DNA from: an uncultured Dehalococcoidia bacterium
GTDB lineage: Bacteria > Chloroflexota > Dehalococcoidia > Tepidiformales > Tepidiformaceae
Reading direction: 5' to 3'
Length of the DNA stretch: 48,783 nt
NCBI GenBank assembly: GCA_963933025.1
Contig: CAWVTC010000001.1
Span: 1-48,783 of the forward strand
The position numbers were made by a program, and so were the translations under genes. This document shows positions 26,257 through 42,445 of the stretch, one piece after another. Every line of letters begins with the position of its first letter. The stretch's first letter is position 1. The notes under the pieces were generated by a model, which saw only the letters and a list, made by a program, of their open reading frames with translations, did not search any database and was not told the DNA's origin.

Positions 26257-27429
26257 ATGGCAGCCGAACCTTTCACTATCACAATTGAAGATGATGTTCT
26301 AGATGATCTAAGAGCACGATTGAAACAAACTCGCTGGGCATCAGACTTCGGTAATGATGACTGGAGATACGGGACAAACGAAGAATACCTTCGGGAATTT
26401 GTTGATTATTGGCTTAACGATTATGACTGGCGAGAGCAAGAACAAAAAATGAATAGCTTTGCTAATTTTAAAACTGAGATCGATGGAGTGCCTATCCACT
26501 TTATTCATGAAAAAGGAAAGGGACCAAACCCTACGCCGTTAATTTTGACGCATGGTTGGCCTTGGACATTCTGGGACTTCAACGAGGTAATTCGTCCTCT
26601 GACAGATCCAGCTGCATTCGGTGGAGATCCTGAAGATGCTTTTGACGTAATAGTACCCTCACTACCTGGGTTTGGCTTTTCAACCCCATTGCGACAAACA
26701 GGAGTACAGCCAGTAAAAACAGCTGATTTATGGGTCAAGTTAATGCGCGATGTACTTAAGTATGATCAGTTCGGTGCACAAGGGGGTGACTGGGGATCAT
26801 TTGTAACCGCACAACTCGGACATAAATACCCTGAATATCTGATTGGCATTCATTTGAGTCTGCCTTGGTTACTTACCGACGGTGGTTTTAGACCAGCTTC
26901 TGCAGAGGATTATGGTCCAGGAGAGGAAGATTGGTTTGAACAAATGAATACAAGAATGCAATCAGCAGCTTCACATGTTGCAGTACATTCAAACGATCCA
27001 CAAACATTGGCATACGCAATTAATGATTCGCCTGTGGGTCTAGCAGCCTGGTTAATTGAACGACGTAGAAACTGGAGCGATTGCGATGGTGATGTAGAAA
27101 AAAGTTTCACAAAAGAACATCTTATTAACACAGTAATGATTTATTGGTTAACAGAGAGCTTTTCCACCAGCGTTCGCTATTATTGGGAAAATGCTCGAGC
27201 TCCCTGGGTCGCCTCTCACGATCGGAAACCAACAATAGAAACACCTACAGCAATTGCTGTTTTCCCACGCGAGTTAATTTTGATGCCAAGAAAATTGGCA
27301 GAGGAACGTACAAATCTTCACAGATGGACCTTAATGCCTTCTGGGGGACATTTTGCCCCTGCTGAGGAACCACAACTTCTAGTCGAAGACTTACAAGCTT
27401 TTTTTAGGACTCTCAAAAGTGCGAGGTGA
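26257..27429 (+). CDS. epoxide hydrolase (microsomal-type, with EHN N-terminal domain)
   Basis: The N-terminal pattern is FTITIEDDVLDDLRARLKQTRWA...IDGVPIHFIHEKG. It has HGWPWTFWDF and GGDWGS around the nucleophile. Confidence 0.8.
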   Translation: MAAEPFTITIEDDVLDDLRARLKQTRWASDFGNDDWRYGTNEEYLREFVDYWLNDYDWREQEQKMNSFANFKTEIDGVPIHFIHEKGKGPNPTPLILTHGWPWTFWDFNEVIRPLTDPAAFGGDPEDAFDVIVPSLPGFGFSTPLRQTGVQPVKTADLWVKLMRDVLKYDQFGAQGGDWGSFVTAQLGHKYPEYLIGIHLSLPWLLTDGGFRPASAEDYGPGEEDWFEQMNTRMQSAASHVAVHSNDPQTLAYAINDSPVGLAAWLIERRRNWSDCDGDVEKSFTKEHLINTVMIYWLTESFSTSVRYYWENARAPWVASHDRKPTIETPTAIAVFPRELILMPRKLAEERTNLHRWTLMPSGGHFAPAEEPQLLVEDLQAFFRTLKSAR

Positions 27430-28498
27430 CCACTTCGGCTGGACAACTGTAACAATTGCAATTTGTTTCATCACTGTAATTACTTCTACTAGCCTACTGG
27501 CATGCGTTAGAAAATCAGCCGCTCCTACTTCTACCTCTACTTCTACCTCTACTTCTACCCCTACCTCTACTTCTACCCCTACCTCTACTCTTACCCCTAC
27601 CCCTACCTCTACTCCTACCCCTACTACTCCTACTCCTACCCCTACCTCTACTCCTACTCCTACTCCTACTCCTACTGCACAACAATTAGAAACGCTTAAG
27701 AAAAAACAACAATGTTCAGTTGCTGAACTTAAACTTTGGGAATTAGGCAAATCGATTGAGACGACAATGTCTACTTATGGAGATGACCCGTATAACGGAA
27801 GTTATAGCTTCGCACTGATCGATACATACTGCTCTCAAGCTCTAACCATCAATCCTGAACGATTACAATATCCAGCTTCTGCAGCAAAGATAGTAATTGC
27901 TATCGCTGTTTTACATGCAGTTGAAACAGAAAAACTAGCCTTGGAAGAAATTCAAGAAGATCTTGAAATTATGATGCGTAAGTCTATGGATATAAACTCG
28001 GATGCGTTAAATGATTTGGTCACCCCTGTACAAGTTCAAGAAATTATTCAAAAAGCAAACCTATCACCTTTAACAAGGTTCTTTCATAGCTGGCGCGAAA
28101 CGGCAATGACAGCACATGATTTGGCACTTATCTGGGAATCCTTAGTTTCGGGAAAGCTTCTCAATAAAACACTGACAGCCTACCTTATGGATTTAACTAC
28201 ACAAGCAATTATTCCCGAAGCCTTTATGACTTTCCCAAGCGGCAAGATCGAAGGTTTTGAATACGGGCAAAAAGCCGGTTACTGGATCAACGCTGAAGGT
28301 GATGAAAGGTTAATTGGCTCAGGATATTTGATAGAACAAGGTAATCCAAACAAAGCATATAGCATTGTTTTCATGACACAAGGAGACGAAGCTGATGACC
28401 TTTGGGATAGGTCAAAACTGGCAGCATCACCAAGACACGGGGTTTGGCCATTGATCCTTGAATTTGTAACCGGGCAAGTGCAAGCTCCAACGAACTAG
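27419..28498 (+). CDS. lipoprotein with Thr/Pro/Ser linker and class-A beta-lactamase-like serine hydrolase domain
   Basis: It has a GTG start, a signal peptide with the lipobox LLAC, a ~50-aa TSTSTPT linker, and the S-x-x-K motif PASAAKIVIAIAVL. Confidence 0.6.
   Translation: MRGDHFGWTTVTIAICFITVITSTSLLACVRKSAAPTSTSTSTSTSTPTSTSTPTSTLTPTPTSTPTPTTPTPTPTSTPTPTPTPTAQQLETLKKKQQCSVAELKLWELGKSIETTMSTYGDDPYNGSYSFALIDTYCSQALTINPERLQYPASAAKIVIAIAVLHAVETEKLALEEIQEDLEIMMRKSMDINSDALNDLVTPVQVQEIIQKANLSPLTRFFHSWRETAMTAHDLALIWESLVSGKLLNKTLTAYLMDLTTQAIIPEAFMTFPSGKIEGFEYGQKAGYWINAEGDERLIGSGYLIEQGNPNKAYSIVFMTQGDEADDLWDRSKLAASPRHGVWPLILEFVTGQVQAPTN
27521..27677. repeat. coding microsatellite-like ACT/CCT/TCT triplet tract (Thr-Pro-Ser linker)
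   Basis: The tract is CCTACTTCTACCTCTACTTCTACC... repeated with variants. It generates the spurious antisense ORF 27391-27750. Confidence 0.9.
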
Positions 28499-30739: not shown

Positions 30740-32890
30740 ATGGCTGTAGAAACTAAAAAATCATTCTGTCGATTCTGTCACGCATTTTGTGCACTGGAAG
30801 TAGACGTTGAAGATAACAAAGTTATCGAGGTAAGAGGAGATTCAAGCGATCCCATATATGGTGGCTACACATGTATTAAAGGACGACAACTGCCACAAGA
30901 ACACAACCACGAAGAACGCTTACGTTCTTCTATGAAACGAATGCCTGATGGAACTTATGAGCCTATCTCTAGTGAGCAGGCGCTAGATGAGATAGCTGAA
31001 AAATTGACTGCAATCATAGATGATTCAGGAACCCGTTCTGTAGCTACGTACAATGGTAGTCATGCCTTTTGTAACGGAATCCCCTTATCTTTCATAAGGG
31101 CTTGGCATGCCGGAGTAAAATCTCCGATGTTTTTTACGAGCGTCACTATAGATCAACCAGCAAAAGCAATTGCAGCTTCACGCCACGGAACGTGGATGGG
31201 CGGATCAAATAATTTTGCTGATGCAGACGTAACTATGATGGTTGGAACTAATCCGGTTGTATCTATGTTTGGCCCCGTACCGCCATTTAACCCATCAAGG
31301 CGACTAAACGATGCCTTGGACCGTGGTATGAAATTAATTGTTATCGATCCCCGAAAATCCGACGTCGCTAAGCGAGCAGATTTGCATCTTGCCGTAAAGC
31401 CAGGAGAGGATGCTACCTTACTATCTGGAATTTTAAGAGTTATCTTTACAGAAGGTCTGTATGACGGTGATTTTCTTGCTGCTAATGCGGATCATGTTGA
31501 AGAGTTAAGAACGTCAGTTGATCCTTTCGATCTGGATTATGTTGAGGAAAGGACAGGTGTTCCAGCAGGACAAGTAGAAGCTGCCGCAAGAATGTTTGCT
31601 TCAGGCCCTAAGGGTTCAGTCGGTTCAGGAACGGGACTAGATATGGGACCAAATCCGAATCTTTCCGAACACTTGATTCATACTTTAAATACAGTCTGTG
31701 GTCGTTACCAGCGAGAAGGTGACCTTGTAACAAACCCGGGCGCATTCGGTCCAAAACGACCATTCCGGGCAGAAGCAAACCCACCAAACCCAGCTTGGGG
31801 AAAAGGGGAGCCTTCTAGGATCAGAGGTCTTGGTGAAGTTTTTGGCGAAATGCCAACAGCCGCATTAAGTGATGAAATTATCATGGAAGGTGAAGGTCAA
31901 GTTCGAGCCTTAATTAGCGTAGGCGGAAACCCAGTAGCTGCCTGGCCAGATCAGTTAAAAACACTGCAGGCCATGGAGTCTCTTGACCTAAACGTGACTA
32001 TAGATATCAAAATGTCCGCAACAGCCAAAACAGCGGACTATGTAATCGCACCAAAAGTGTCTCTGGAAAGACCAGATATCACTCTGCTAACTGATGGTTG
32101 GTACCCAGAAACATACGCTCACTACACCCCAGCAATGGTCGAGCCTGAATTTGATGTTATTGAGGAATGGGAGTTTTTCTGGGGTTTGGCACACAGAATG
32201 GGAACATCTATCAACATCAATGGCATCGAATTAGATATGGAAAATAAACCTTCGACAGACGATGTTTTAGATGCCATTACAACCAACTCACGAATTCCAC
32301 TAGATGAAATTCGTGAAGCTGATGGTGGGACTGTCTTCCGTGACAAAGAAAAAGTATTTGTTGAGGCAAAGGAAACCGGAAACAATGCTCGATTAGACGT
32401 TGCCCCATCAGATTTGATGGAAGAACTCGCAAGTGTACGAGAAATGCAAATTATTGAAGGTGCAGGATACCGTGAAGGAGACCGATTTACACACCGTCTT
32501 ATTAGTAGACGTTTACGTGAATTTTACAATTCTTCAGGACGTGATCTTCCGCGATCACTAGCAAAATACCACACTAATCCTGCATTCCTAAACCCTATTG
32601 ATGCGGAAGAAATCGGTGCATCCGATGGTGACATAATTGATATAACATCAGAAAGATCAACAATTCTTGGAGTTGTTGCTATCTCAACTGACATACCCTC
32701 TGGTGTAATTTCAATGTCTCACTCATGGGGTGATGTCCCTGCATTAGATGACCAAGTTCGAACCATTGGATCTAGTACAAATCGCCTAGTCAATAATGAA
32801 AAGGACTTTGATCCGATTACAGGAATGGCTCGACAAACGGCTATTCCTGTGAACATCGAGCTTTCAAAGAAAGTAATACCAATTAGTTAA
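30740..32890 (+). CDS. molybdopterin-dependent oxidoreductase (MopB superfamily catalytic subunit)
   Basis: The N-terminal [4Fe-4S] motif is CRFCHAFCALEV...YTCIKG. It is 716 aa with a C-terminal molybdopterin dinucleotide-binding-type domain. There is no in-frame stop. Confidence 0.8.
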   Translation: MAVETKKSFCRFCHAFCALEVDVEDNKVIEVRGDSSDPIYGGYTCIKGRQLPQEHNHEERLRSSMKRMPDGTYEPISSEQALDEIAEKLTAIIDDSGTRSVATYNGSHAFCNGIPLSFIRAWHAGVKSPMFFTSVTIDQPAKAIAASRHGTWMGGSNNFADADVTMMVGTNPVVSMFGPVPPFNPSRRLNDALDRGMKLIVIDPRKSDVAKRADLHLAVKPGEDATLLSGILRVIFTEGLYDGDFLAANADHVEELRTSVDPFDLDYVEERTGVPAGQVEAAARMFASGPKGSVGSGTGLDMGPNPNLSEHLIHTLNTVCGRYQREGDLVTNPGAFGPKRPFRAEANPPNPAWGKGEPSRIRGLGEVFGEMPTAALSDEIIMEGEGQVRALISVGGNPVAAWPDQLKTLQAMESLDLNVTIDIKMSATAKTADYVIAPKVSLERPDITLLTDGWYPETYAHYTPAMVEPEFDVIEEWEFFWGLAHRMGTSININGIELDMENKPSTDDVLDAITTNSRIPLDEIREADGGTVFRDKEKVFVEAKETGNNARLDVAPSDLMEELASVREMQIIEGAGYREGDRFTHRLISRRLREFYNSSGRDLPRSLAKYHTNPAFLNPIDAEEIGASDGDIIDITSERSTILGVVAISTDIPSGVISMSHSWGDVPALDDQVRTIGSSTNRLVNNEKDFDPITGMARQTAIPVNIELSKKVIPIS

Positions 32891-32912: not shown

Positions 32913-33563
32913 ATGCAAACAACAGGTGACATTTGGGAAACGATTTATACTCAGCGTGCAATACGTGCGTGGAAAACAGATCCAGTTCCAGAAGAACTGA
33001 TATGGAAAGTTATTGAAGCTGGAACAAAAGCACCCAGTGGAACAAATACACAACCTTGGGGATTTGTCATAATTCAAGATGATGAAACAAGACAAACCAT
33101 TGCAGATCAACTTCATCAGGGCCTTAAGCAAAACCCTGGACTGCAGCAAATGCTTGAGCAAGGATCTCAAGCGGCGGACAAAACAACTCGTTTAATGCTC
33201 AAAGGAGCTCAACGACTTTTCACAAATCTTTCCTCTGCGCCAGTTTTTATTATCCCATGCTTGTATCAAGTCTCATCACCTGCACCTGAGGGTTTGCTAG
33301 CAGGATCTTCAATTTATGGTGCGGTACAAAATATGCTTTTGGCCGCTCGAGCTCTCGGACTAGGCACTGTTATGACAACGTTTCATGGTGCTGTGGAAGA
33401 AATACTGCGCGAACATTGCCAATTACCCGAAGATGCGACACCAGTTGCATTGATCCCAATGGGATATCCAGATGCAAACTTTGGTCCAACTACGCGAAAA
33501 GCTGTTCAAACTGTGACTCACTGGGAACAATGGGGATCAATGCAAGAAAGAACTCCGAGTTGA
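32913..33563 (+). CDS. nitroreductase-family flavoprotein
   Basis: It has IYTQRAIRAWKTDPVPEELIWKVIEAGTKAPSGTNTQPWGFVII and ALIPMGYPDANFGPTTRK. It lies 22 nt after the Mo-enzyme gene. Confidence 0.8.
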   Translation: MQTTGDIWETIYTQRAIRAWKTDPVPEELIWKVIEAGTKAPSGTNTQPWGFVIIQDDETRQTIADQLHQGLKQNPGLQQMLEQGSQAADKTTRLMLKGAQRLFTNLSSAPVFIIPCLYQVSSPAPEGLLAGSSIYGAVQNMLLAARALGLGTVMTTFHGAVEEILREHCQLPEDATPVALIPMGYPDANFGPTTRKAVQTVTHWEQWGSMQERTPS

Positions 33564-33569
33564 TCAAAC

Positions 33570-34340
33570 ATGGGAAACAATTTTGAAAAAGAGCGTCAAG
33601 CTTTTGCTAACTCTTGGGTTGTAGCAGGCCGCTTAGAAGATATACCTGGGCCAGGCCACTACTACACTTGGGAAAAAACACGTGTCCCCCTTTTAATTCT
33701 TCATGCAACCGATGGTGAAATTAGATCGTTTTATAATAGCTGTCGCCACCGAGGTGCACCTGTCGTACGAGTAGCGCGAGGAAGAAACCGAGCCCTACGA
33801 TGCCAGTATCATTCATGGACTTATGACACTACTGGTAAGTTAGTTTCCGTTCCTGATGAACGGGACTTTGTTGACCTTAAACGAGAGGATCGCAGTTTAG
33901 TACAAATTAAGGCGGAATCCATTGGCGGTTGGATTTTTGTAACTGAAAATTTGAATGCCCACTCCTTAACTGAAAGTCTAGGAGATGTAGCGGATAAACT
34001 CCTCGAAGATAGCAATCTACTTATAGCCAAACGTGAAACAAGACATGTGCAAAATAATTGGAAATCAATTCAGGATATCCTGAGCGATAACTTTACTTCC
34101 ACTAGTGATGAACTATCCCCTGCTGAACACAACCTGGACGAAGATTCTTACACAATCTTCCCGAACCTACTCCACGTCACCATTGAAAAACACGATGTAG
34201 TCCTTGTTACCTGGCCAATTGATGAAAACACCACAGAACTTGAAATTATATATTTAGCACCTCTACCCAAAATAGAAGATTCTGCATGGCAAAAAGAAAT
34301 ATCTTCCATCCAAAAAACCATCCAACAAGTAATCGAGTAA
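33570..34340 (+). CDS. Rieske [2Fe-2S] protein, truncated ring-hydroxylating-oxygenase alpha paralog lacking the mononuclear-iron ligands
   Basis: The Rieske ligands are C58-x-H60, then 17 residues, then C78-x-x-H81 (SCRHRGAPVVRVARGRNRALRCQYHSW). After the conserved NWK it reads SIQDILSDNFTSTSDE with no His. It is only 256 aa. Confidence 0.75.
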   Translation: MGNNFEKERQAFANSWVVAGRLEDIPGPGHYYTWEKTRVPLLILHATDGEIRSFYNSCRHRGAPVVRVARGRNRALRCQYHSWTYDTTGKLVSVPDERDFVDLKREDRSLVQIKAESIGGWIFVTENLNAHSLTESLGDVADKLLEDSNLLIAKRETRHVQNNWKSIQDILSDNFTSTSDELSPAEHNLDEDSYTIFPNLLHVTIEKHDVVLVTWPIDENTTELEIIYLAPLPKIEDSAWQKEISSIQKTIQQVIE

Positions 34341-34344
34341 AAGA

Positions 34345-35115
34345 ATGATAGCCCTTTACCGGTTCTGGCCGGAAATACGTGAAGATATACAAGATTCTCT
34401 ACGTGTTTTGCCTACAGCAATGCCTGATAGTGCCGCCAGCCTTGCACTAGAAATTCAAGCGTTCACTGTAACCCTAGGATCATATGACCTAGCAATTACA
34501 ATCCCTGAATTTAATACTATTGAAGAAACAGCTTCTGCAGCCCTAGCAATAATTGATGCGACTATTCAAAACCGCTTATACCAAAACGGGGAAAAGTTCT
34601 GGGCGGATATTCGATCCGAAATGATACCAAACCTGTCAATACAAACTCCTAAAAAACCCGATCCTTTTGAAAGCATTCCAGCTTCTGTACCAATTTTAAT
34701 CTTACGTGCTAAAGGTGGCTGGAATGTACTTGCTGCACCAGACCGCCAGGCGTGGCAAACGCTGGCAATGACATTTTTAAACCAGCAAACATACAATCTT
34801 TTTCATTACATACAGGACTGGTATGAACCTGCCATAAATGAACTTGCAACTCTCGTATTAGGCACACACCAATCGGAAGATGTGGCAGGAACCTGCCAAA
34901 CTTACAATTTGCCTGGCGATTTTTTGACAACATGGCAAGACGAGATACAAATACATAAAAAAATTTTGGGAAACCAAAAAAAATCCTCAAGTGAATCTTT
35001 AGCAAATATCTTGCAATATGCGGCCTTATTACCAAATCACAATCAACCGGACAACGAGACTCAAGATGGGTTACATCAATTGGCACAGCTTGGAAATAAT
35101 CTATTCAGGAAATGA
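34345..35115 (+). CDS. hypothetical protein, no recognisable domain
   Basis: 256 aa ORF that starts 4 nt after the Rieske gene stop. I recognise no motif. Confidence 0.5.
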   Translation: MIALYRFWPEIREDIQDSLRVLPTAMPDSAASLALEIQAFTVTLGSYDLAITIPEFNTIEETASAALAIIDATIQNRLYQNGEKFWADIRSEMIPNLSIQTPKKPDPFESIPASVPILILRAKGGWNVLAAPDRQAWQTLAMTFLNQQTYNLFHYIQDWYEPAINELATLVLGTHQSEDVAGTCQTYNLPGDFLTTWQDEIQIHKKILGNQKKSSSESLANILQYAALLPNHNQPDNETQDGLHQLAQLGNNLFRK

Positions 35116-35121
35116 TCTCAA

Positions 35122-36162
35122 TTACTGCAAAGGCTCAATAACAAGAACCCCATGACCGACCATCTCACCATTTTCCAAGATCGTAATCGCCTCATTCGTC
35201 TCTTCAATAGTAAAGCGCCTACTTGTCATTAAACTTGTTTGCAAATAATTAGAATTGACGGCTTCAAGCAAGCTTTCTAAGCCTGAATCTAAATCCGGAA
35301 TCGAAAATGAACGATAATCACCCTCTTCAATTTCTAATCTCTCATCCTCAAATTGTTCGGTTCCTGCAACGCCAAGTAAATAACCAAAACCACTGTCATT
35401 CAAAACTTGTATCGATAATCGCGGAATCATATCCACTTCATAAAGTGAATCGAAAACCCGATCAACTCCGCCATTACTCAGCTCACGTATAGCTGAAACA
35501 GCAGTCGCCGGCTCATTATTAAAAACCTCTGTAGCCCCAAGTTGACTTGCAATCTCAAGGCGTGCACTAGAGCTATCAACAGCATATATAGCTTCAGCAC
35601 CTGCAGCCTTGCAAAGAGCTACCGTACTTAATCCAGAACCCGAACAGCCAAAAACTGCAACGCTCTTCCCATCAACATCTGCATCCTTCACAGCAGCATT
35701 TGCGTAAAACGCAGTCTGACCCAAAATTGAAGCCCCTTCTTTATCTGCAAGATTAGGCAAGGTACTTAAAAACTGCTCATCCACTACAGTATTCGTCCCC
35801 CAGGTAAAAACAGGACCTATTTCATGAGTAGATCCATCTTCAAATTCAATCTGCACCAATTCTGGCAATCGATCCGACGCAGAAGAATAAGGGGAAATTA
35901 AAACAATATCCCCGATATGTACACGCGTCACCTCATCACCTACGGCTAATACGCGTCCGGTAGCTTCAAAACCTGGAATAGTCACTGAATCACTGGGTGG
36001 CTCTTGTACTAAATGAAGTTGAGCTGATTGAATCCCAGCACCATATATTTCAACGAGCACCTGATGAGCCAAAGGGGTCGGTAGATCTAGCTCCTGGATA
36101 GTGAGCACCCCATAATTTTCAAGAACTACCACACGAGCAGGAGAAGGCAAACTACACCTCAC
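35122..36162 (-). CDS. medium-chain dehydrogenase/reductase (zinc-independent, quinone-oxidoreductase-like)
   Basis: It has IPGFEATGRVLAVGDEVTRVHIGDIVL, with GFE instead of GHE. The nucleotide-binding motif is VAVFGCSGSGLS. Confidence 0.7.
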   Translation of the reverse strand: MRCSLPSPARVVVLENYGVLTIQELDLPTPLAHQVLVEIYGAGIQSAQLHLVQEPPSDSVTIPGFEATGRVLAVGDEVTRVHIGDIVLISPYSSASDRLPELVQIEFEDGSTHEIGPVFTWGTNTVVDEQFLSTLPNLADKEGASILGQTAFYANAAVKDADVDGKSVAVFGCSGSGLSTVALCKAAGAEAIYAVDSSSARLEIASQLGATEVFNNEPATAVSAIRELSNGGVDRVFDSLYEVDMIPRLSIQVLNDSGFGYLLGVAGTEQFEDERLEIEEGDYRSFSIPDLDSGLESLLEAVNSNYLQTSLMTSRRFTIEETNEAITILENGEMVGHGVLVIEPLQ

Positions 36163-36200
36163 ACTTAAGCAAAAATAAACGACTTAAAATATTTACCGTT

Positions 36201-37553
36201 TCATGAGCTAGATCTGTCTATATAAGGTCCAAGCAACTGAGGTACGCGCAAATCTTCTCGGATTTTTTCGGGGCCAATCATACGATCAACTTGCTCCGCA
36301 CAGTTCCAAATTCGACGCTCTTGGTAACTAGTTGGCATGCCTACAAGTCCTGGTGAATCAAGAGATTTTTGCATGGGCGCCATATTCCTCGTATCTTCCT
36401 CCATCACACTGTCAAAACCATTCAAACGCATTTGCCAGGCTTCATCGGTAACTGGTGAAGGACCATCACCCCAATCTGTACAGAAAGTCACCCACTCAAA
36501 CAAAGTGGTTCGGACATCAAGTGGCCAAGCAAGCAAAAATGGCATACCAGTCGCCCCTACAGGTGTGATTAAGTTGGGAAATGCACTAAATGCAGTGCTC
36601 GTACAACGTGTCATACCGTTGACAGTTTCAATGTCTTCCATGCCCGCATTATATTTTTCTGTATTCGATAAAGCGCGCGTAACATCTTTCCGCCAATCAA
36701 GTTGATCCTTCATCCCGGACATCTCGGCTGCCCGTTTAGAGAGAGGTGTAATCATACGAGAATGTCCATTTGGAAGGATACCCATAGTAGCACCACGCTG
36801 ATCAAGCCCCGAAACACCGGCTTTTTGATGTATATGCTTAAAGTGATATACCTCTTGGAAAGCTTCTACGGTCACCTTCCAATTACACGGAATAATGGTC
36901 CTTCGCCTGTTGATTAATCTTAATTTCTCACCCTGAAACATTTCCATCTGCTCCGTTAACGGATGCATCCATTCGAGCAAAGGTTCTGCGTTCAAATCTT
37001 GATTTACAAAAACCCATCCATCCCAAATCTCACATCGCAATTCCCGTAGAGAGTCCACATCTGTTATTGGTGATACCGGCTGTCCCTTCAGATCATACAC
37101 TTGCCCAGTATCTGGATCCGTCAACACGCCATCGTTTAAAAATCTTCTCGGAAACTCATTTTGAGTTTGAAAACTCTGTTTAGTTTCATATCCTTCTTCA
37201 AAAATTCTTTCGCCGTATAGGTCACTATCATCATGTGGTTCAACATAATACTTCCCACTTGGAGTGGTGTTATAAAAAGCGTGAAGCAAACCTTCTTCAT
37301 CTCGAACGACAATTACAGGCGTGTGCAAATAATCCCAAAGCTGGTATGAACCGGGCTCTGGAAGCTCTTCTTGACGGGTCGCATAAAGCCAAACCTTAGT
37401 CCAGAGATGCTTCATCTCGAGATCGAAAAATTCTTCCTCTCGATAGCGACCTGCCGGAATATCAGGAAACTTTGGAAATCCTTCAGGAGGTCCTTCACGC
37501 GAAAACTCGTAAAGGATTTCTTCCTTAAGTCTTTCAACAAGTGTCTCTTTCAT
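36201..37553 (-). CDS. ring-hydroxylating-oxygenase alpha-subunit paralog with catalytic iron motif but no Rieske ligands
   Basis: It has NWKVTVEAFQEVYHFKHIH (H-x4-H), AFPNL and SVMEEDTRNM. The N-terminal Rieske-fold region reads LHAFYNTTPSGKYY and RFLNDGVLTDPDTG where C-x-H and C-x-x-H are expected. Confidence 0.7.
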   Translation of the reverse strand: MKETLVERLKEEILYEFSREGPPEGFPKFPDIPAGRYREEEFFDLEMKHLWTKVWLYATRQEELPEPGSYQLWDYLHTPVIVVRDEEGLLHAFYNTTPSGKYYVEPHDDSDLYGERIFEEGYETKQSFQTQNEFPRRFLNDGVLTDPDTGQVYDLKGQPVSPITDVDSLRELRCEIWDGWVFVNQDLNAEPLLEWMHPLTEQMEMFQGEKLRLINRRRTIIPCNWKVTVEAFQEVYHFKHIHQKAGVSGLDQRGATMGILPNGHSRMITPLSKRAAEMSGMKDQLDWRKDVTRALSNTEKYNAGMEDIETVNGMTRCTSTAFSAFPNLITPVGATGMPFLLAWPLDVRTTLFEWVTFCTDWGDGPSPVTDEAWQMRLNGFDSVMEEDTRNMAPMQKSLDSPGLVGMPTSYQERRIWNCAEQVDRMIGPEKIREDLRVPQLLGPYIDRSSS

Positions 37554-37603: not shown

Positions 37604-38683
37604 CTATAACAAGTGCAAATTCTTTTTATTCTCAATCCATTGATCAACTTGTTCCCACTGATCATACAGCCACTCAATACGATCTTCATCAGTTTCAGGG
37701 ATTTCTGCACGTGGTACACGCCATAGTCCAATATGCAATTCTTTTCTCATCAATCCACCTCGAGCAGCTTGTGAATACGTCCCAAGTTCAAGTCCTGTAT
37801 GTGCAAGAAAAACGACATCTGATTCAGGTGAATTTTCAAGGAGAGCCAATGGGCCACCGGTACGAGGCAACAATACATTTCTAAATGATTCAGCTTTTTC
37901 TGCGAGAGCTCTATTATTATTTTTTACCAATCGAGTAATCATCTGGCTGCGTTTTCTTTCACTAAAAAGGGTACCTTCTGGAAATAACAAAACTACATCG
38001 TTGTCTCCAAGGTTTTTCCCAAGTGCTGCAACATCCTTCAAGTGACGAGGTCGTCTATGCTCACCAACACGAATAAAAGCAGTCGGAATACGATGTGAAA
38101 CTAAATCGATACTCGGATCTCGCAACAACCAATGGTTAAGAGCAGTTCTTATATGTAGACGATGCGGATTCGAAACAAAAACTGAGGGAATAAGGTTATC
38201 TACTGGTGAAACATGACGACTAAACAAGAGAATAGGACCACTCTCAGGAGGAGGGGTGCCTTCGACAAAAATACGTATACCAAAAATCTTCACTGCTCCC
38301 CAAAAAAGACAACCAGCCCAAAATCGAATAAGTGCATTATTTAAAGACAGCGAAGTTTTACTTCCACCAATACAAAACATCCTATCAATTAAGCAACCCA
38401 CAATAGTCAGGGTCTCAATCATTAAGTAAAACCAAGTAAGCAAAATCACTCTTGTCAAAGGCAAGTTTTTCCGCTTGCGTTGAACATCCCAAATAGTAGT
38501 AGCTAGAAAAAGCACAGGGGCACTTATAGTCATAAACACAAACCCCAGCGTGAAGGATGGAATAGTTATCAGCCTTCTCAACATCCAAAAGTTAAATGGA
38601 CTATGTGAATCCAATTTCACCGGGAGAACAGGGGTTTGGGTAACAGAGTTTTCTTTAGGTAAAGAAACATCGTTACGTGCCAT
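37604..38683 (-). CDS. membrane-bound lysophospholipid acyltransferase (PlsC/LPLAT family)
   Basis: It has N-terminal TM segments, the H-x4-D motif SRHVSPVD, and LLFPEGTL. Confidence 0.7.
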   Translation of the reverse strand: MARNDVSLPKENSVTQTPVLPVKLDSHSPFNFWMLRRLITIPSFTLGFVFMTISAPVLFLATTIWDVQRKRKNLPLTRVILLTWFYLMIETLTIVGCLIDRMFCIGGSKTSLSLNNALIRFWAGCLFWGAVKIFGIRIFVEGTPPPESGPILLFSRHVSPVDNLIPSVFVSNPHRLHIRTALNHWLLRDPSIDLVSHRIPTAFIRVGEHRRPRHLKDVAALGKNLGDNDVVLLFPEGTLFSERKRSQMITRLVKNNNRALAEKAESFRNVLLPRTGGPLALLENSPESDVVFLAHTGLELGTYSQAARGGLMRKELHIGLWRVPRAEIPETDEDRIEWLYDQWEQVDQWIENKKNLHLL

Positions 38684-38733
38684 ATCACTAGAGTAACCTG
38701 AGATGGGCTAGAAGATAGCACGAAAAGATCTCA

Positions 38734-38776
38734 ACAAAAAATTTATGGGAACAAAAAATTTATGGGAACAAAAATT
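38734..38776. repeat. 17-bp tandem repeat ACAAAAAATTTATGGGA x2.5 spanning a stop codon
   Basis: Copies are at 38734-38750 and 38751-38767, with a partial copy at 38768-38776. The stop of 38760-39257 lies inside copy 2. Confidence 0.9.
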
Positions 38777-39257
38777 GCGCATCTTCATCGCCAAGGATCA
38801 AAACTACACCGTAGATCGTTAGATCAAAGCGAGGAAATCGTAGCAAAAGGGTACGGGATTGTCCTGCTAAAAAAGTTAGGTTTGTTAGAGGAACATTGGG
38901 GTCTGCAGGAAGTGCCACGACTACCTCATCATCATCAGGAAACTTGATAGTAAAGTCAGTGTGAGCAGGTTTCCAATCAGAAAATGCATCAATAGTCAGT
39001 TCCACTTCAAAAATTTCAGCATTTTCAGCCTCATAAGCTTTCTGAAGGGTAATTTCAGCATTTTCAGCCTCATAAGGTTGTCCAGGTTGAATAGGATTAT
39101 CAGCAAAGTAACGATTTATCAAAGGTGGCACTACGAAAAGTCCAACAATAAGACCTGCCAGAACCCCTAAAATAGCACCTGTAACCAGACAACCACGTCG
39201 GTTCCCTGGAGATGCATCTTGATCGATAGAAAGACGTTTCCGATTTGGTTTAAGCAC
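38760..39257 (-). CDS. membrane-anchored protein of unknown function with internal 13-aa duplication
   Basis: It has an N-terminal TM segment (GCLVTGAILGVLAGLIVGLFVV) and the duplicated segment YEAENAEI. Confidence 0.5.
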   Translation of the reverse strand: MLKPNRKRLSIDQDASPGNRRGCLVTGAILGVLAGLIVGLFVVPPLINRYFADNPIQPGQPYEAENAEITLQKAYEAENAEIFEVELTIDAFSDWKPAHTDFTIKFPDDDEVVVALPADPNVPLTNLTFLAGQSRTLLLRFPRFDLTIYGVVLILGDEDAQFLFP

Positions 39258-39383
39258 TTAAGATCACATTTATCGCTTTTTGAATTGGAATGTATTCTCT
39301 AGATTAATAAACGTAGAGAATAGGTAACATCTGAGACATGAGAAAAGGATACCGCTAATCTCCTTCTTTGAGGAACAGATTTT

Positions 39384-40649
39384 ATGAAATATACAGAAGC
39401 CATCGCCTATTTAGAATCTTTTCAGGACATGGAAAGGGATCCTGGAAGATCAGCAAAGCCTGCAATGAATGTCCCAACGATGAAAAATTTGCTTAACCGC
39501 CTAGGAAATCCAGAATTAGGACAACAAACAATTCATATAACAGGTACCAATGGGAAAGGCAGCGTTGCTAATATGCTAGAAAGCATCCTGCGAACTAGTG
39601 GTTCCTCTACGGCCTTATTTACGAGCCCCCATCTCAATGGCTACACAGAACGCATTCAAATAAATGGTTTCCCGATCTCGCAAGCCTCCTTTGCAGAGGC
39701 TATGACAGAACTAAAACCTTGCATCGAAAAAGAACAGACTTCAAACAAATCTATATTTAGTACTTTTGGCATTTTGACTGCCTTGTTCTTTCTACTTAGC
39801 CACAAAAAAAAGATCGACTGGCAAATAGTAGAAGTTGGTCTTGGTGGCAAGTTTGATGCTACAAATATTTTCGAGCAAACCGAAATATCCGTGATTACAG
39901 CAATCGACTTCGACCATATGCATATTTTAGGCAGCACTATCGAAGATATCGCAAAGGATAAGGCTGGCATTATTAAACCTGGAAGTGTATGTGTTTTAGG
40001 TCCACAACAACACTCAATCGTCGAAAAAATCGTTGCTGGTGCATGTAAGGAAATTGGTGCTCAGCTAATCAAAGTACCATTACCTAAAGAAAATGTAGCT
40101 AAATGGAAAACCCAATTGCTCGGAATTCACCAACAGGCTAACGCAAAAATTGCAGCAACTGTAGCAACATCAATTAATGCTAATACCCAACAGTTGGATA
40201 AAAAAATAATTGAGGAAGGTATTTCCAAAACACGCCTACAGGGAAGAATAGAGGTGATTTCCTCACAACCAACTACAATTATAGATACCGCGCATAATCC
40301 TGCTGCAGCCCGTGCTTTGGTCAATACACTTCAAAGTGAATTTGGAAACAGAAAATGGCAATTTGTTCTAGGAATTATGGCTGACAAGGATGTTAAAGGC
40401 GTAGGGAAAGCTATCGAAAATATTGCAGAAACTATTATTTGCTGCTCTCTACCAAGTAAGCGAGCATTGACTGCACAGGCTTTGAGTTTGGAGTTAGCAA
40501 AACTTAACGTAAAACTTATTTTTGCAAAAAATGTTCCAGAAGGATTGCAGCAAGCACGTAAGCTTGCCGGAAAAACAGGTCATATCTGTATTACTGGATC
40601 CTTCATAACTGCCTCAGAGGGCGAAGCAGCTGTACGCAATAACCCATAA
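39384..40649 (+). CDS. folC: bifunctional folylpolyglutamate synthase / dihydrofolate synthase
   Basis: It has the IHITGTNGKGSV P-loop, SPHL and AHNPAAA. Confidence 0.85.
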   Translation: MKYTEAIAYLESFQDMERDPGRSAKPAMNVPTMKNLLNRLGNPELGQQTIHITGTNGKGSVANMLESILRTSGSSTALFTSPHLNGYTERIQINGFPISQASFAEAMTELKPCIEKEQTSNKSIFSTFGILTALFFLLSHKKKIDWQIVEVGLGGKFDATNIFEQTEISVITAIDFDHMHILGSTIEDIAKDKAGIIKPGSVCVLGPQQHSIVEKIVAGACKEIGAQLIKVPLPKENVAKWKTQLLGIHQQANAKIAATVATSINANTQQLDKKIIEEGISKTRLQGRIEVISSQPTTIIDTAHNPAAARALVNTLQSEFGNRKWQFVLGIMADKDVKGVGKAIENIAETIICCSLPSKRALTAQALSLELAKLNVKLIFAKNVPEGLQQARKLAGKTGHICITGSFITASEGEAAVRNNP

Positions 40650-40659
40650 ACTAACAACA

Positions 40660-41481
40660 ATGACATTTGCAAAAGAACTCAAGGGAGGCCTCTTCCCGAT
40701 CACTTTAGAAATCACTCCACCTAAGACTTCGAAGATGCCTGTACTGCTACGTCGCGCATCACTACTCGGCGATACTGCATCGGGAATAAACATCATTAAT
40801 CGAAATGGTCGACAACCCAGCCTTGCTGCAGCTATAGAACTCCAAAAGAAACATCTTGAACCAATTTGGCATTTAACTGTCGGAGGTAAAACTCAAGAAG
40901 CTATACGATCAGAAATTAAGGATGCCAAAACTGCAGGATTACAAAATGTTCTATGTTTGCTGGGCGATAGTAACTCTAAGGGCGAACTCAAGGTTCATGA
41001 AGTAATAAAACTACTAAAACAACAACTTGCACCGTCTCTAATTGCAGTTGCATATGATCAATATCACGACACAAAAAATAAATACGCTAATTTAAAGAAG
41101 AAAATCGCGCAAGGTGCTACATGTATATGGACACAACCTGTTCTAGAGAGTAAAAGGCTGCAAGTAGAAGTTGAAAAACTAAAAGAGGCTCACCCCGAAG
41201 CATCCATTGTGGCCATGGCAATGCCGCTTATTCAGGAGGCTCAATTGAAACAAATCACTGCACGCTTACAGATACCTGAACAACCAGCCCTCGAAAAACA
41301 AATACGCGCAGGGGAAGACGAAGCATGGGATGCTTTTAATGAAACTGTGCTACATCTTGTAATGAATCCATATATTGATGGATTGGCTATCATGACTTTT
41401 GAAACAGACCCACATCCCAACATAGGTAAACGCATTAAAAATAGTCTGAAGACGGCGAAGGCCTCTTTACCCAGGAGTTGA
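40660..41481 (+). CDS. methylenetetrahydrofolate reductase-family protein
   Basis: The MTHFR-like pattern is ITLEITPPKT...NIINRNG...HLTVGGKT...NVLCLLGD. It lies 10 nt after folC. Confidence 0.55.
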   Translation: MTFAKELKGGLFPITLEITPPKTSKMPVLLRRASLLGDTASGINIINRNGRQPSLAAAIELQKKHLEPIWHLTVGGKTQEAIRSEIKDAKTAGLQNVLCLLGDSNSKGELKVHEVIKLLKQQLAPSLIAVAYDQYHDTKNKYANLKKKIAQGATCIWTQPVLESKRLQVEVEKLKEAHPEASIVAMAMPLIQEAQLKQITARLQIPEQPALEKQIRAGEDEAWDAFNETVLHLVMNPYIDGLAIMTFETDPHPNIGKRIKNSLKTAKASLPRS

Positions 41482-41482
41482 A

Positions 41483-42445
41483 ATGCAGCAACGAGAATTT
41501 GGAAAACTTGGATTTATTAGTGCACTTACGCTTGGCGGAGGAGGGATCGGACAAGTATGGGGAGAGACTAACCGAGCCGAATCAATACGTACAGTTCATA
41601 AGGCAGTTGATAATGGAATTAATTTCCTTGATGTAGCACCTAGTTATGGCCAAGGAGAAGCTGAGCGTGTGATCGGTGACGCATTCGGAGGGGTTCTCCC
41701 TGAAGGCGTACGTATCTCTACAAAGCACCACCTTGGAGAAGTACCGCCTGGAGAAGTTGCTCTTCACCTTCAAACTTCCCTTGAGGAAAGTTTGGAACGT
41801 TTACAGTTGGAGAAAGTTAATCTTTTTTTTCTGCATGGCATGGTAATCCCAGATAACTACAAAGGCGTACAGAGGGGTACGCCACGCTCTCAATTCATAC
41901 AAGAAGTAAGGCCTGCTTTTGAGAAATTAGTACGTACTGGAAGAATTGATGGGTGGGGAATCAGCGGTATCGGCGTACCAAGTGCATTAGTAGAAACTCT
42001 TGAAGAAAACCCTAGCCCGAACGCCATACAATGCATTACAAACTTGCTAGATTCTGCTGGATCGATGCACACATACAACGAAAGTATGGAGCCACGAAAA
42101 CTTATTGGACTTGCTAACAAAGTAGGAACTGGAGTGATGGGTATTCGTGCAGTTCAAGCGGGTGCATTAACCGATGAACTAGACCGTGAGGTACCTCATG
42201 ATCATCCAGAGATGATTGATTACAAACGTGCCTCCGGATTCCGTCACCTAGCAGCAGAATTCGGAGTATCTGCTGCATCACTCGCACATCGTTATGCTTT
42301 AAGTATGGATGGCGTATCAACGGTTGTGTTAGGAGTAAAAAATTGTGAGGAATTAGAAGAATGCTTACAGGCAGAAAAATCAGGACCGTTGACCAAGGAT
42401 GAAATTACACTGATAGATCAATGCGTCGGAAGTAAACATTCCTGA
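41483..42445 (+). CDS. aldo/keto reductase
   Basis: It has LGGGGIGQVWG, GINFLDVAPSYGQGEAERVIG and LFFLHG. Confidence 0.85.
   Translation: MQQREFGKLGFISALTLGGGGIGQVWGETNRAESIRTVHKAVDNGINFLDVAPSYGQGEAERVIGDAFGGVLPEGVRISTKHHLGEVPPGEVALHLQTSLEESLERLQLEKVNLFFLHGMVIPDNYKGVQRGTPRSQFIQEVRPAFEKLVRTGRIDGWGISGIGVPSALVETLEENPSPNAIQCITNLLDSAGSMHTYNESMEPRKLIGLANKVGTGVMGIRAVQAGALTDELDREVPHDHPEMIDYKRASGFRHLAAEFGVSAASLAHRYALSMDGVSTVVLGVKNCEELEECLQAEKSGPLTKDEITLIDQCVGSKHS

Follow-up and report, generated by a model that had tools for sequence, protein, structure and literature searches.

Reciprocally degenerate Rieske oxygenase paralogs in a marine Dehalococcoidia genome: candidate halves of a split enzyme

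This study concerns two genes, designated A and B, in a 48.8-kb stretch of DNA (the window) from a marine Dehalococcoidia genome. Both encode relatives of the α subunit of Rieske non-heme-iron oxygenases. Judged from their sequences, neither A nor B alone is a complete α subunit, and the pair together is one. The nearest genomes by gene B are the metagenome-assembled genomes LRMED-146 and ALOHA_A2.0_8 (Tepidiformaceae or Dehalococcoidia), with 91–92% protein identity. The region consists of two tightly spaced, convergent transcription units (Table 1). On the plus strand the order is a gene for a bis-molybdopterin guanine dinucleotide (bis-MGD) molybdoenzyme (MOLY), a nitroreductase-family gene (NTR), A, and a gene designated U; on the minus strand B is followed by a gene resembling medium-chain dehydrogenases/reductases (MDR) and alcohol dehydrogenases (ADH). 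An earlier note on this DNA had placed the A and B open reading frames correctly and had described the genes as convergent and 1.9 kb apart; the separation is 1861 nucleotides (nt). Only 6 nt separate the stop codon of U from that of the ADH-like gene (window positions 35115–35122). This leaves no space for separate terminators, and the two transcripts must therefore overlap or read into each other. A scan for promoters and terminators gave fewer promoter-like sites than were found in shuffled sequences, and was not used.

Table 1 Genes and sequence features of the A/B region (positions in the window)
Feature	Position	Strand	Basis or remark
A, Rieske-only α′ subunit, 256 aa	33570..34340	+	Pfam, alignments, AlphaFold2 (AF2), Foldseek
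Rieske motif of A	33741..33812	+	Sole Rieske motif in the window, all six frames
B, iron-only α subunit, 450 aa	36201..37553	-	Pfam, alignments, AF2, Foldseek
B residues 224–242, NWKVTVEAFQEVYHFKHIH, with Glu234, His237 and His242	36828..36884	-	Alignment to CntA
Asp387 of B, third iron ligand, inside MEEDTRN	36393..36395	-	Invariant in relatives
B residues 95–150, former Rieske cluster loops and insertion	37104..37271	-	Alignment, AF2
U, distant and truncated CoA-transferase family III-like protein, 256 aa	34345..35115	+	Starts 4 nt after A
Zinc-less MDR/ADH-like protein, 346 aa	35122..36162	-	Directly downstream of B
NTR, nitroreductase-family FMN protein	32913..33563	+	6 nt upstream of A, same operon
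MOLY, cytoplasmic bis-MGD molybdoenzyme with N-terminal 4Fe-4S motif	30740..32890	+	First gene of the MOLY-NTR-A-U operon

Protein A has the complete Rieske ligand set of an α subunit, which B does not have. The ligands C58-R-H60 and C78-Q-Y-H81 are separated by 17 residues, and none of the four (C58, H60, C78, and H81) varies among 37 relatives. In a Pfam scan A matched the Rieske profile (PF00355) at 1.5e-16 and only a fragment of the Ring_hydroxyl_A profile (profile positions 89–153), the latter with 24.5 bits, below the cut-off of 24.9; no flavin, NAD, or plant-type ferredoxin domain was found by Pfam. Alignment to canonical relatives showed neither an H-x4-H motif nor an Asp at the third-ligand position after N162-W-K164. 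The C-terminal remnant contains no family-conserved His, Asp, or Glu, and the only conserved residues beyond the Rieske domain are W164, N199, W215, and P216. His159, His187, His202, and His208 in the remnant were considered as alternative ligands and rejected, because they are conserved only among the closest relatives. Compared with its canonical relatives of 417 aa, A is about 160 residues short: it lacks about 38 residues at the N terminus, about 65 internally after the NWK helix, and about 55 at the C terminus. The AF2 model of A (pLDDT 80.8, pTM 0.81) had CntA as its top Foldseek match (TMq 0.75), and the best matches of A in both sequence and fold were α subunits, not ferredoxins. In the model, what remains of the catalytic domain forms a mini helix-grip consisting of a strand (151–160), a helix (164–176), a sheet (194–230), and a second helix (238–255). 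Homologs of A that are 99%, 90%, and 82% identical and have the same truncated form were found on independent marine metagenome contigs.

Protein B has the opposite composition. It matched the Ring_hydroxyl_A profile at 6.8e-19 and gave no Rieske match, and it contains the 2-His-1-carboxylate site (H237, H242, and D387) that A lacks. His237 and His242 align to CntA H208 and H213. Three residues before the first His ligand, E234 aligns to CntA E205, the bridging Glu shown to be essential in CntA (PMC7948474). E234, H237, H242, and D387 are invariant in sets of 27 and 29 sequences, and the same holds for about 60 additional loci. The two Rieske loops of B have the sequences NTTPSGKYY... and ...LTDPDTG. 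A conserved insertion of about 30 residues (DDS..F..Q..FPRR) replaces the first cluster loop, and was modeled by AF2 as a confident β-hairpin with strands at E113–119 and E126–131. The first 185 residues of B contain a single Cys, C174, which canonical relatives share at a non-ligand position; B therefore has no alternative [2Fe-2S] ligand set. The AF2 model of B had a pLDDT of 79.5 and a pTM of 0.85, and its top Foldseek matches were stachydrine demethylase and CntA (approximately 4e-18); TPADO was also among the top fold matches of both A and B. A search with the dead Rieske segment of B against 1.84e9 representative sequences gave one weak match and was uninformative.

What is retained in each protein is close to a canonical enzyme. 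Residues 54–103 of A are identical to those of the canonical relative P0026 at 45 of 50 positions, and residues 224–242 of B at all 19 positions. Both sides of the ancestral inter-subunit interface have thus been kept with almost no change. These results uphold most of what the earlier note had read from the two genes. The intact Rieske ligand set of A, the absence of His ligands after NWK (the Asp is missing as well), and the retention by B of H-x4-H and a full catalytic domain all stood, and the Pfam scan that it had called for divided the two domains between A and B as described above. Its estimate that A lacks roughly 100 residues of the catalytic domain is corrected to about 120. Its account of the ligand substitutions in B was right in that no ligand Cys or His occurs at the loops, but there is also the insertion at the first loop. 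The discovery of alternative ligands in either protein had been named as grounds for rejecting the claim; none were found.

Both degenerate types occur well beyond the window. Among the best 120 matches of B we found 36 clusters that lack the Rieske ligands and keep the iron ligands, and among the best matches of A there were 72 clusters of the reverse type. The latter range in length from 249–332 aa (short A) up to about 390–414 aa (A-prime); the A-prime proteins are full length, with the His motif replaced by ...LLESLPVPPRPG... Because both types are conserved families, the pattern is not a chance property of one genome. The best canonical matches common to A and B are P0026, P0030, P0031, and P0033. 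In a neighbor-joining tree of 229 sequences, which has no support values and in which the ligand losses themselves inflate the distances, each degenerate type formed one pure clade, and the canonical P0031 was the first non-B tip beside the B clade. That A and B are nearest to the same canonical clade is expected from duplication followed by complementary loss. By sequence comparison, then, the A-type and B-type proteins are families of common origin.

Selection on the window genes was measured as dN/dS against their orthologs at two related loci (L003 and L004). For A the value was 0.28 overall, with 0.17–0.19 in the Rieske part and 0.28–0.33 in the remnant. B as a whole gave 0.06, its dead Rieske-fold domain 0.07, and its insertion 0.11, and U gave 0.16–0.18. 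Orthologs from Sphingopyxis and other Sphingomonadales gave 0.14–0.25 for A-type and 0.07–0.17 for B-type genes. The possibility raised earlier that A is a pseudogene under relaxed selection is not borne out by these values; neither A nor B is decaying.

Gene neighborhoods were read from 10-kb flanks in two scans, one anchored on B (one genome per species, 62 loci, classified by script) and one anchored on A in metagenomes (80 loci). The short A-type gene was always followed by U, and it adjoined B and the ADH-like gene wherever the flank sufficed. Three arrangements were found. The genes are convergent in the window and in L003, L004, and L077, and divergent in L001, in Henriciella litoralis (L002), in Sphingopyxis and other Sphingomonadales (L058, L060, L063, and L064), and in L083, L084, L087, and L088. 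In L028/L073 and L052/L074 they form a co-directional A-U-B-ADH operon with gaps of 4–60 nt or short overlaps and with unrelated flanking genes. Allowing for near-duplicates, the module is present in at least eight lineages of Chloroflexota and Alphaproteobacteria, whereas none of the approximately 45 loci of canonical relatives had U, a zinc-less MDR, or a B-type gene as a neighbor. The co-occurrence that the earlier note had proposed as a check is thus found for the short A-type. B and the ADH-like gene were adjacent in all proteobacterial loci and in all loci of the B1 type (the main Dehalococcoidia group, discussed below) with enough flank, the ADH-like gene lying immediately downstream of B, often with overlapping stop and start codons. 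The proteobacterial cluster was also compared with the sphingomonad bile-salt side-chain cluster, and this identification was rejected; the oxygenase of that cluster, Nov2c228, is KshA-like and belongs to a different branch.

The two accessory genes that travel with A and B, which the earlier note had passed over, are themselves unusual. Six of 13 members of the U family match CoA_transf_3 (PF02515), with a best E-value of 5.8e-6, and a sequence search of U against the PDB gave no match. The family comprises 53 clusters in 5.8e9 proteins; none of these is annotated, and their contigs coincide with the contigs carrying A and B. The MDR/ADH-like protein keeps the fold and the GxGxxG motif but not the zinc ligands of a zinc-dependent ADH, which are replaced (C46Q, H67F, and C174Q in liver ADH numbering); the catalytic zinc ligands were also absent in all 12 orthologs examined. 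Within the family GxGxxG is kept in Chloroflexota and eroded in Alphaproteobacteria. The erosion of this NAD(P)-binding glycine motif, together with the loss of the zinc ligands, suggests that the protein is a structural pseudo-dehydrogenase. U and the zinc-less MDR are probably either extra subunits or obligatory pathway partners.

NTR and MOLY are linked to the module only in Dehalococcoidia. We infer that NTR is a candidate electron donor. The nearest relatives of MOLY in the PDB are acetylene hydratase and FdhH. Homologs of MOLY also lie directly upstream of canonical relatives with both metal centers, on unrelated metagenome and actinomycete contigs (L059, L090, L091, L098, L100, L107, and L110), so that the association of this molybdoenzyme with Rieske oxygenases is a recurrent one. 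Two other genes of the window were noted in passing. An open reading frame at 27419–28498 (plus strand) encodes an N-terminal hydrophobic segment, a Ser/Thr/Pro repeat linker of about 55 residues (STSTSTSTSTPTSTSTPTS...TPTPTPT), and then a globular domain. A small open reading frame of 165 aa at 38760–39257 (minus strand), between the acyltransferase and FolC genes, encodes one hydrophobic segment and an internally duplicated peptide (YEAENAEI, twice).

Rieske oxygenases are a textbook example of electron transfer between subunits. In the canonical enzymes the electron never passes within a subunit; it leaves the cluster of one and reaches, through a bridging Asp or Glu, the iron of the next. 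Given this inter-subunit transfer, a mixed assembly of A and B would need only one productive A-to-B interface. We think it somewhat probable that the two proteins together make up a single split Rieske non-heme-iron oxygenase, in which A passes electrons to B. In favor of this interpretation we count the metal sites, which are exactly complementary and conserved within each family; the purifying selection on both genes, including the dead domain of B and the remnant of A; the presence of B beside every short A with enough flank and beside none of the canonical loci; the near-identity of the retained interface regions to P0026, with the bridging Glu kept in B; the correlated pairwise distances of A, B, U, and the ADH-like protein; the single clade formed by each degenerate type in the neighbor-joining tree; the fact that A is the sole Rieske protein in the window; and the precedent of the Micromonas chlorophyllide a oxygenase (CAO) proteins CAO1 and CAO2. 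From this we infer a physical complex, with its stoichiometry, electron path, donor, and substrate. A, as an α′ subunit, would bind the Rieske [2Fe-2S] cluster and be reduced by a donor, and B, as the α subunit, would bind mononuclear Fe(II) through His237, His242, and Asp387. The electron would pass from the His-ligated cluster iron of A through Glu234 and His237 of B to the mononuclear iron, where O2 would be activated and the substrate oxidized. The dead halves, that is, the mini helix-grip remnant of A and the Rieske-fold domain of B with its insertion, may have been kept as scaffolds for assembly. U and the zinc-less MDR may be extra subunits, comparable to the GST-like NdmE of the bacterial NdmCDE system, or obligate pathway partners.

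The principle of a split Rieske oxygenase is already known from algae. In the accounts that cite Kunugi et al. 2013 (bioRxiv 10.1101/2025.02.10.637544; PMC9615114), the heterodimeric CAO of Micromonas pusilla and other Mamiellophyceae consists of MpCAO1 and MpCAO2; one of them has the iron motif alone and the other the Rieske motif alone, and neither can be dispensed with. As far as those accounts describe it, that system resembles A/B in having two homologous genes, one Rieske-only and one iron-only, and in the same rationale of inter-subunit transfer. It differs in being a eukaryotic plastid enzyme of chlorophyll b synthesis from the PAO/CAO branch, whereas A and B are bacterial and from another branch; their nearest sequences and folds are CntA, Stc2, TPADO, and NagG, and their host is a non-photosynthetic member of the Dehalococcoidia. 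A and B are further set apart by the retention of the dead-half fold in both partners and by the two extra conserved proteins. The A/B pair would thus work like the split CAO but is not a member of its family.

The closest bacterial comparison is the NdmCDE N7-demethylase of Pseudomonas putida CBB5, in which the catalytic subunit has no cluster, the Rieske cluster is on the reductase NdmD, and the glutathione S-transferase (GST)-like NdmE is required for assembly (PMC4408171). As proposed for A/B, a bacterial catalytic non-heme-iron subunit without its own cluster is combined with a cluster on another polypeptide. In the A/B system, however, the Rieske domain is on a degenerate α paralog and is not fused to a reductase, and the accessory proteins are MDR-like and CoA-transferase-like instead of GST-like; neither a reductase-borne Rieske domain nor a GST-like subunit was found. 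In sequence and fold the best matches for A and B are the canonical α3 enzymes of the quaternary-ammonium group (CntA, Stc2, and GbcA). B has in common with the CntA group that the bridging residue is Glu, not Asp, and that an aromatic residue stands two positions ahead of it (F232 in B, Y203 in CntA), but those enzymes carry both metal centers on every subunit. GbcA is the best NCBIfam match for both proteins, with only 85 and 59 bits against a cut-off of 670. Beyond NdmCDE and the algal CAO, our literature searches found no reciprocally degenerate α/α′ Rieske oxygenase in bacteria, and the SAR202 pangenome paper treats all such genes simply as ring-hydroxylating dioxygenase α subunits (PMC6946804). 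What is new here is the occurrence of a probable split Rieske oxygenase in bacteria, in the CntA-type branch, and with two further degenerate partners.

Several points weigh against a split enzyme formed by A and B. Strict alternation of A and B is impossible in a ring of three subunits, and the structure predictions behind the proposal are all of single chains. A is four to five times less constrained than B by dN/dS. The pairwise distances of A, B, U, and the ADH-like protein correlate across 13 loci (r = 0.76–0.96), but such a correlation also follows from simple co-inheritance. Neither the window nor the four-gene operons contain a gene for a ferredoxin or a ferredoxin-NADP reductase (FNR)-type reductase; in Henriciella a Fer2 gene lies 2.7 kb away. 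Most important, a Rieske-only gene is missing within 10 kb of B at about 28 of the 36 Dehalococcoidia loci of the B1 type and at every one of the 21 loci of the B2 type, which indicates that B-type proteins need no adjacent A. In those B1 loci the B-ADH pair faces U-NTR-MOLY, and U and NTR, which would flank A, are separated by only about 36 nt. The B2 loci (L031–L051, L056, L062, and L066) occur in the same Dehalococcoidia genomes as the B1 locus, at a distance of about 40 kb from it; the B2 proteins are 57–59% identical to B, have the loops ESPN...RCQRRGW, which resemble the loop motifs of the proteobacterial B proteins, and have no partner genes.

Part of this difficulty may be met by A-prime. 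By matching contigs to the list of A matches, we found that at least nine genomes without an adjacent A carry an A-prime gene (about 400 aa) on the same chromosome. Where it could be located it was 0.15–1 Mb from B, beside acyltransferase, aldo-keto reductase (AKR), MTHFR, and FolC genes or beside an unrelated canonical oxygenase. The idea that A-prime is the adjacent partner in other genomes was rejected, since it held only in L005 and L027. The acyltransferase-FolC-MTHFR-AKR block of the window (37604–42445) is orthologous, at 40–64% identity, to the A-prime flanks in L071 and L072; A-prime is absent from this block in the window, where the B cluster abuts the acyltransferase gene. This orthology suggests a history in which the Rieske-only gene of the window lineage moved into the U operon and lost part of its length. 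A depends on B, and B-type proteins may use a partner encoded elsewhere. A second idea, that B-type proteins without an adjacent A keep their own ligands, was not supported, because the class ii ligand-keepers and the ligand-losers both lack an adjacent A. The B1-type proteins of L005–L030 vary at the former ligand positions (C-x-H, N-x-H, or S-x-D; RCPEEGH, RCCEGH, or RSSEGH), and a few pair C-x-H with C-x2-H around the 30-residue insertion. Since the residues vary between C, S, and N and between H and D among close relatives, these C-x-H and C-x2/4-H remnants look like ligand decay.

The same observations have to be weighed under other explanations. Rieske-type ferredoxins are standard parts of three-component oxygenases, and those of the dioxygenases, such as BphF and TodB, deliver electrons to the oxygenase. 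A could be a carrier of this kind, a Rieske ferredoxin derived from an α subunit that dissociates freely and docks transiently on a homo-oligomer of B. Like these ferredoxins, A is a small soluble protein with a Rieske [2Fe-2S] cluster as its sole cofactor, and it evolves faster than B. B keeps everything that a homotrimer needs, its own Rieske-fold domain being strongly constrained, and the many B-type loci without an adjacent A would fit a diffusible donor that can be encoded anywhere. However, A comes from an α subunit, to judge by its best matches, and is more than twice as long as the ferredoxins, with a vestigial catalytic domain that is folded in the model and under purifying selection; a pure shuttle would not need this remnant. 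Moreover, in a B homotrimer the dead Rieske-fold domain of the neighboring subunit would already fill the site facing each Glu234. We therefore regard a freely dissociating carrier as unlikely.

An explanation to which we give little credence is that A and B are functionally unrelated neighbors, with B either Rieske-independent (using electrons derived from the substrate) or served by another donor, and with A serving other oxygenases or another role. The solitary B2 paralogs, the many B1 loci without A, the A-prime genes that adjoin an unrelated canonical oxygenase, and the Cys/His remnants in some B1 proteins are all as this would predict. Yet wherever the flank suffices short A has B beside it, and this holds across both phyla and all three gene orders; the bridging residue Glu234 does not vary; the B protein of the window has no possible cluster ligands; and the B1 remnants vary in the manner of decay, not of function. 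Finally, one or both genes might be functionless paralogs in decay, in a genome with many duplicated oxygenases. In SAR202 genomes the paralogs of ring-hydroxylating oxygenases are indeed greatly expanded (PMC6946804), and A has the highest dN/dS in the cluster. This explanation is already contradicted by the data on selection and conservation: in both phyla the dN/dS of the two genes is well under 1, dozens of genomes have intact reading frames, the truncated form of A recurs on the independent marine contigs, and the neighborhood is conserved. We consider it highly improbable. The split enzyme of A and B remains the interpretation that we favor. It agrees with the hetero-oligomer put forward in the earlier note, an idea that withstood all three of the grounds for rejection named there.

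A broader proposal, which we offer tentatively and think possible at best, is that the four linked genes encode one obligate multi-subunit oxygenase built of degenerate scaffolds and inherited as a unit, perhaps acting on a component of marine dissolved organic matter that is a CoA thioester or a quaternary-ammonium compound. The hints as to substrate are weak: F232 of B is at the position of the quaternary-ammonium-binding Y203 of CntA, U resembles the CaiB-type CoA-transferase fold, and genes for acyl-CoA ligase, DUF35/thiolase, acyl-CoA dehydrogenase, and CoA-transferase are nearby in several loci. The system is probably catabolic. If the proposal is true, the four-gene unit would be the first bacterial case of reciprocal subfunctionalization of a Rieske oxygenase α subunit, found in marine SAR202-type Dehalococcoidia and in Alphaproteobacteria.

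A split pair would provide a clean handle on inter-subunit electron transfer, because each metal center can be mutated or labeled on its own polypeptide, and it would illustrate the drift of homo-oligomers toward obligate hetero-oligomers. It would also carry a warning for annotation, in that about 100 clusters now annotated "aromatic ring-hydroxylating oxygenase subunit alpha" or "hypothetical" would be unable to function by themselves. Because cultured strains of Henriciella and Sphingopyxis have the system, it is open to direct testing. That it is abundant in SAR202-type Dehalococcoidia is relevant to the oxidation of recalcitrant marine organic matter by these bacteria.

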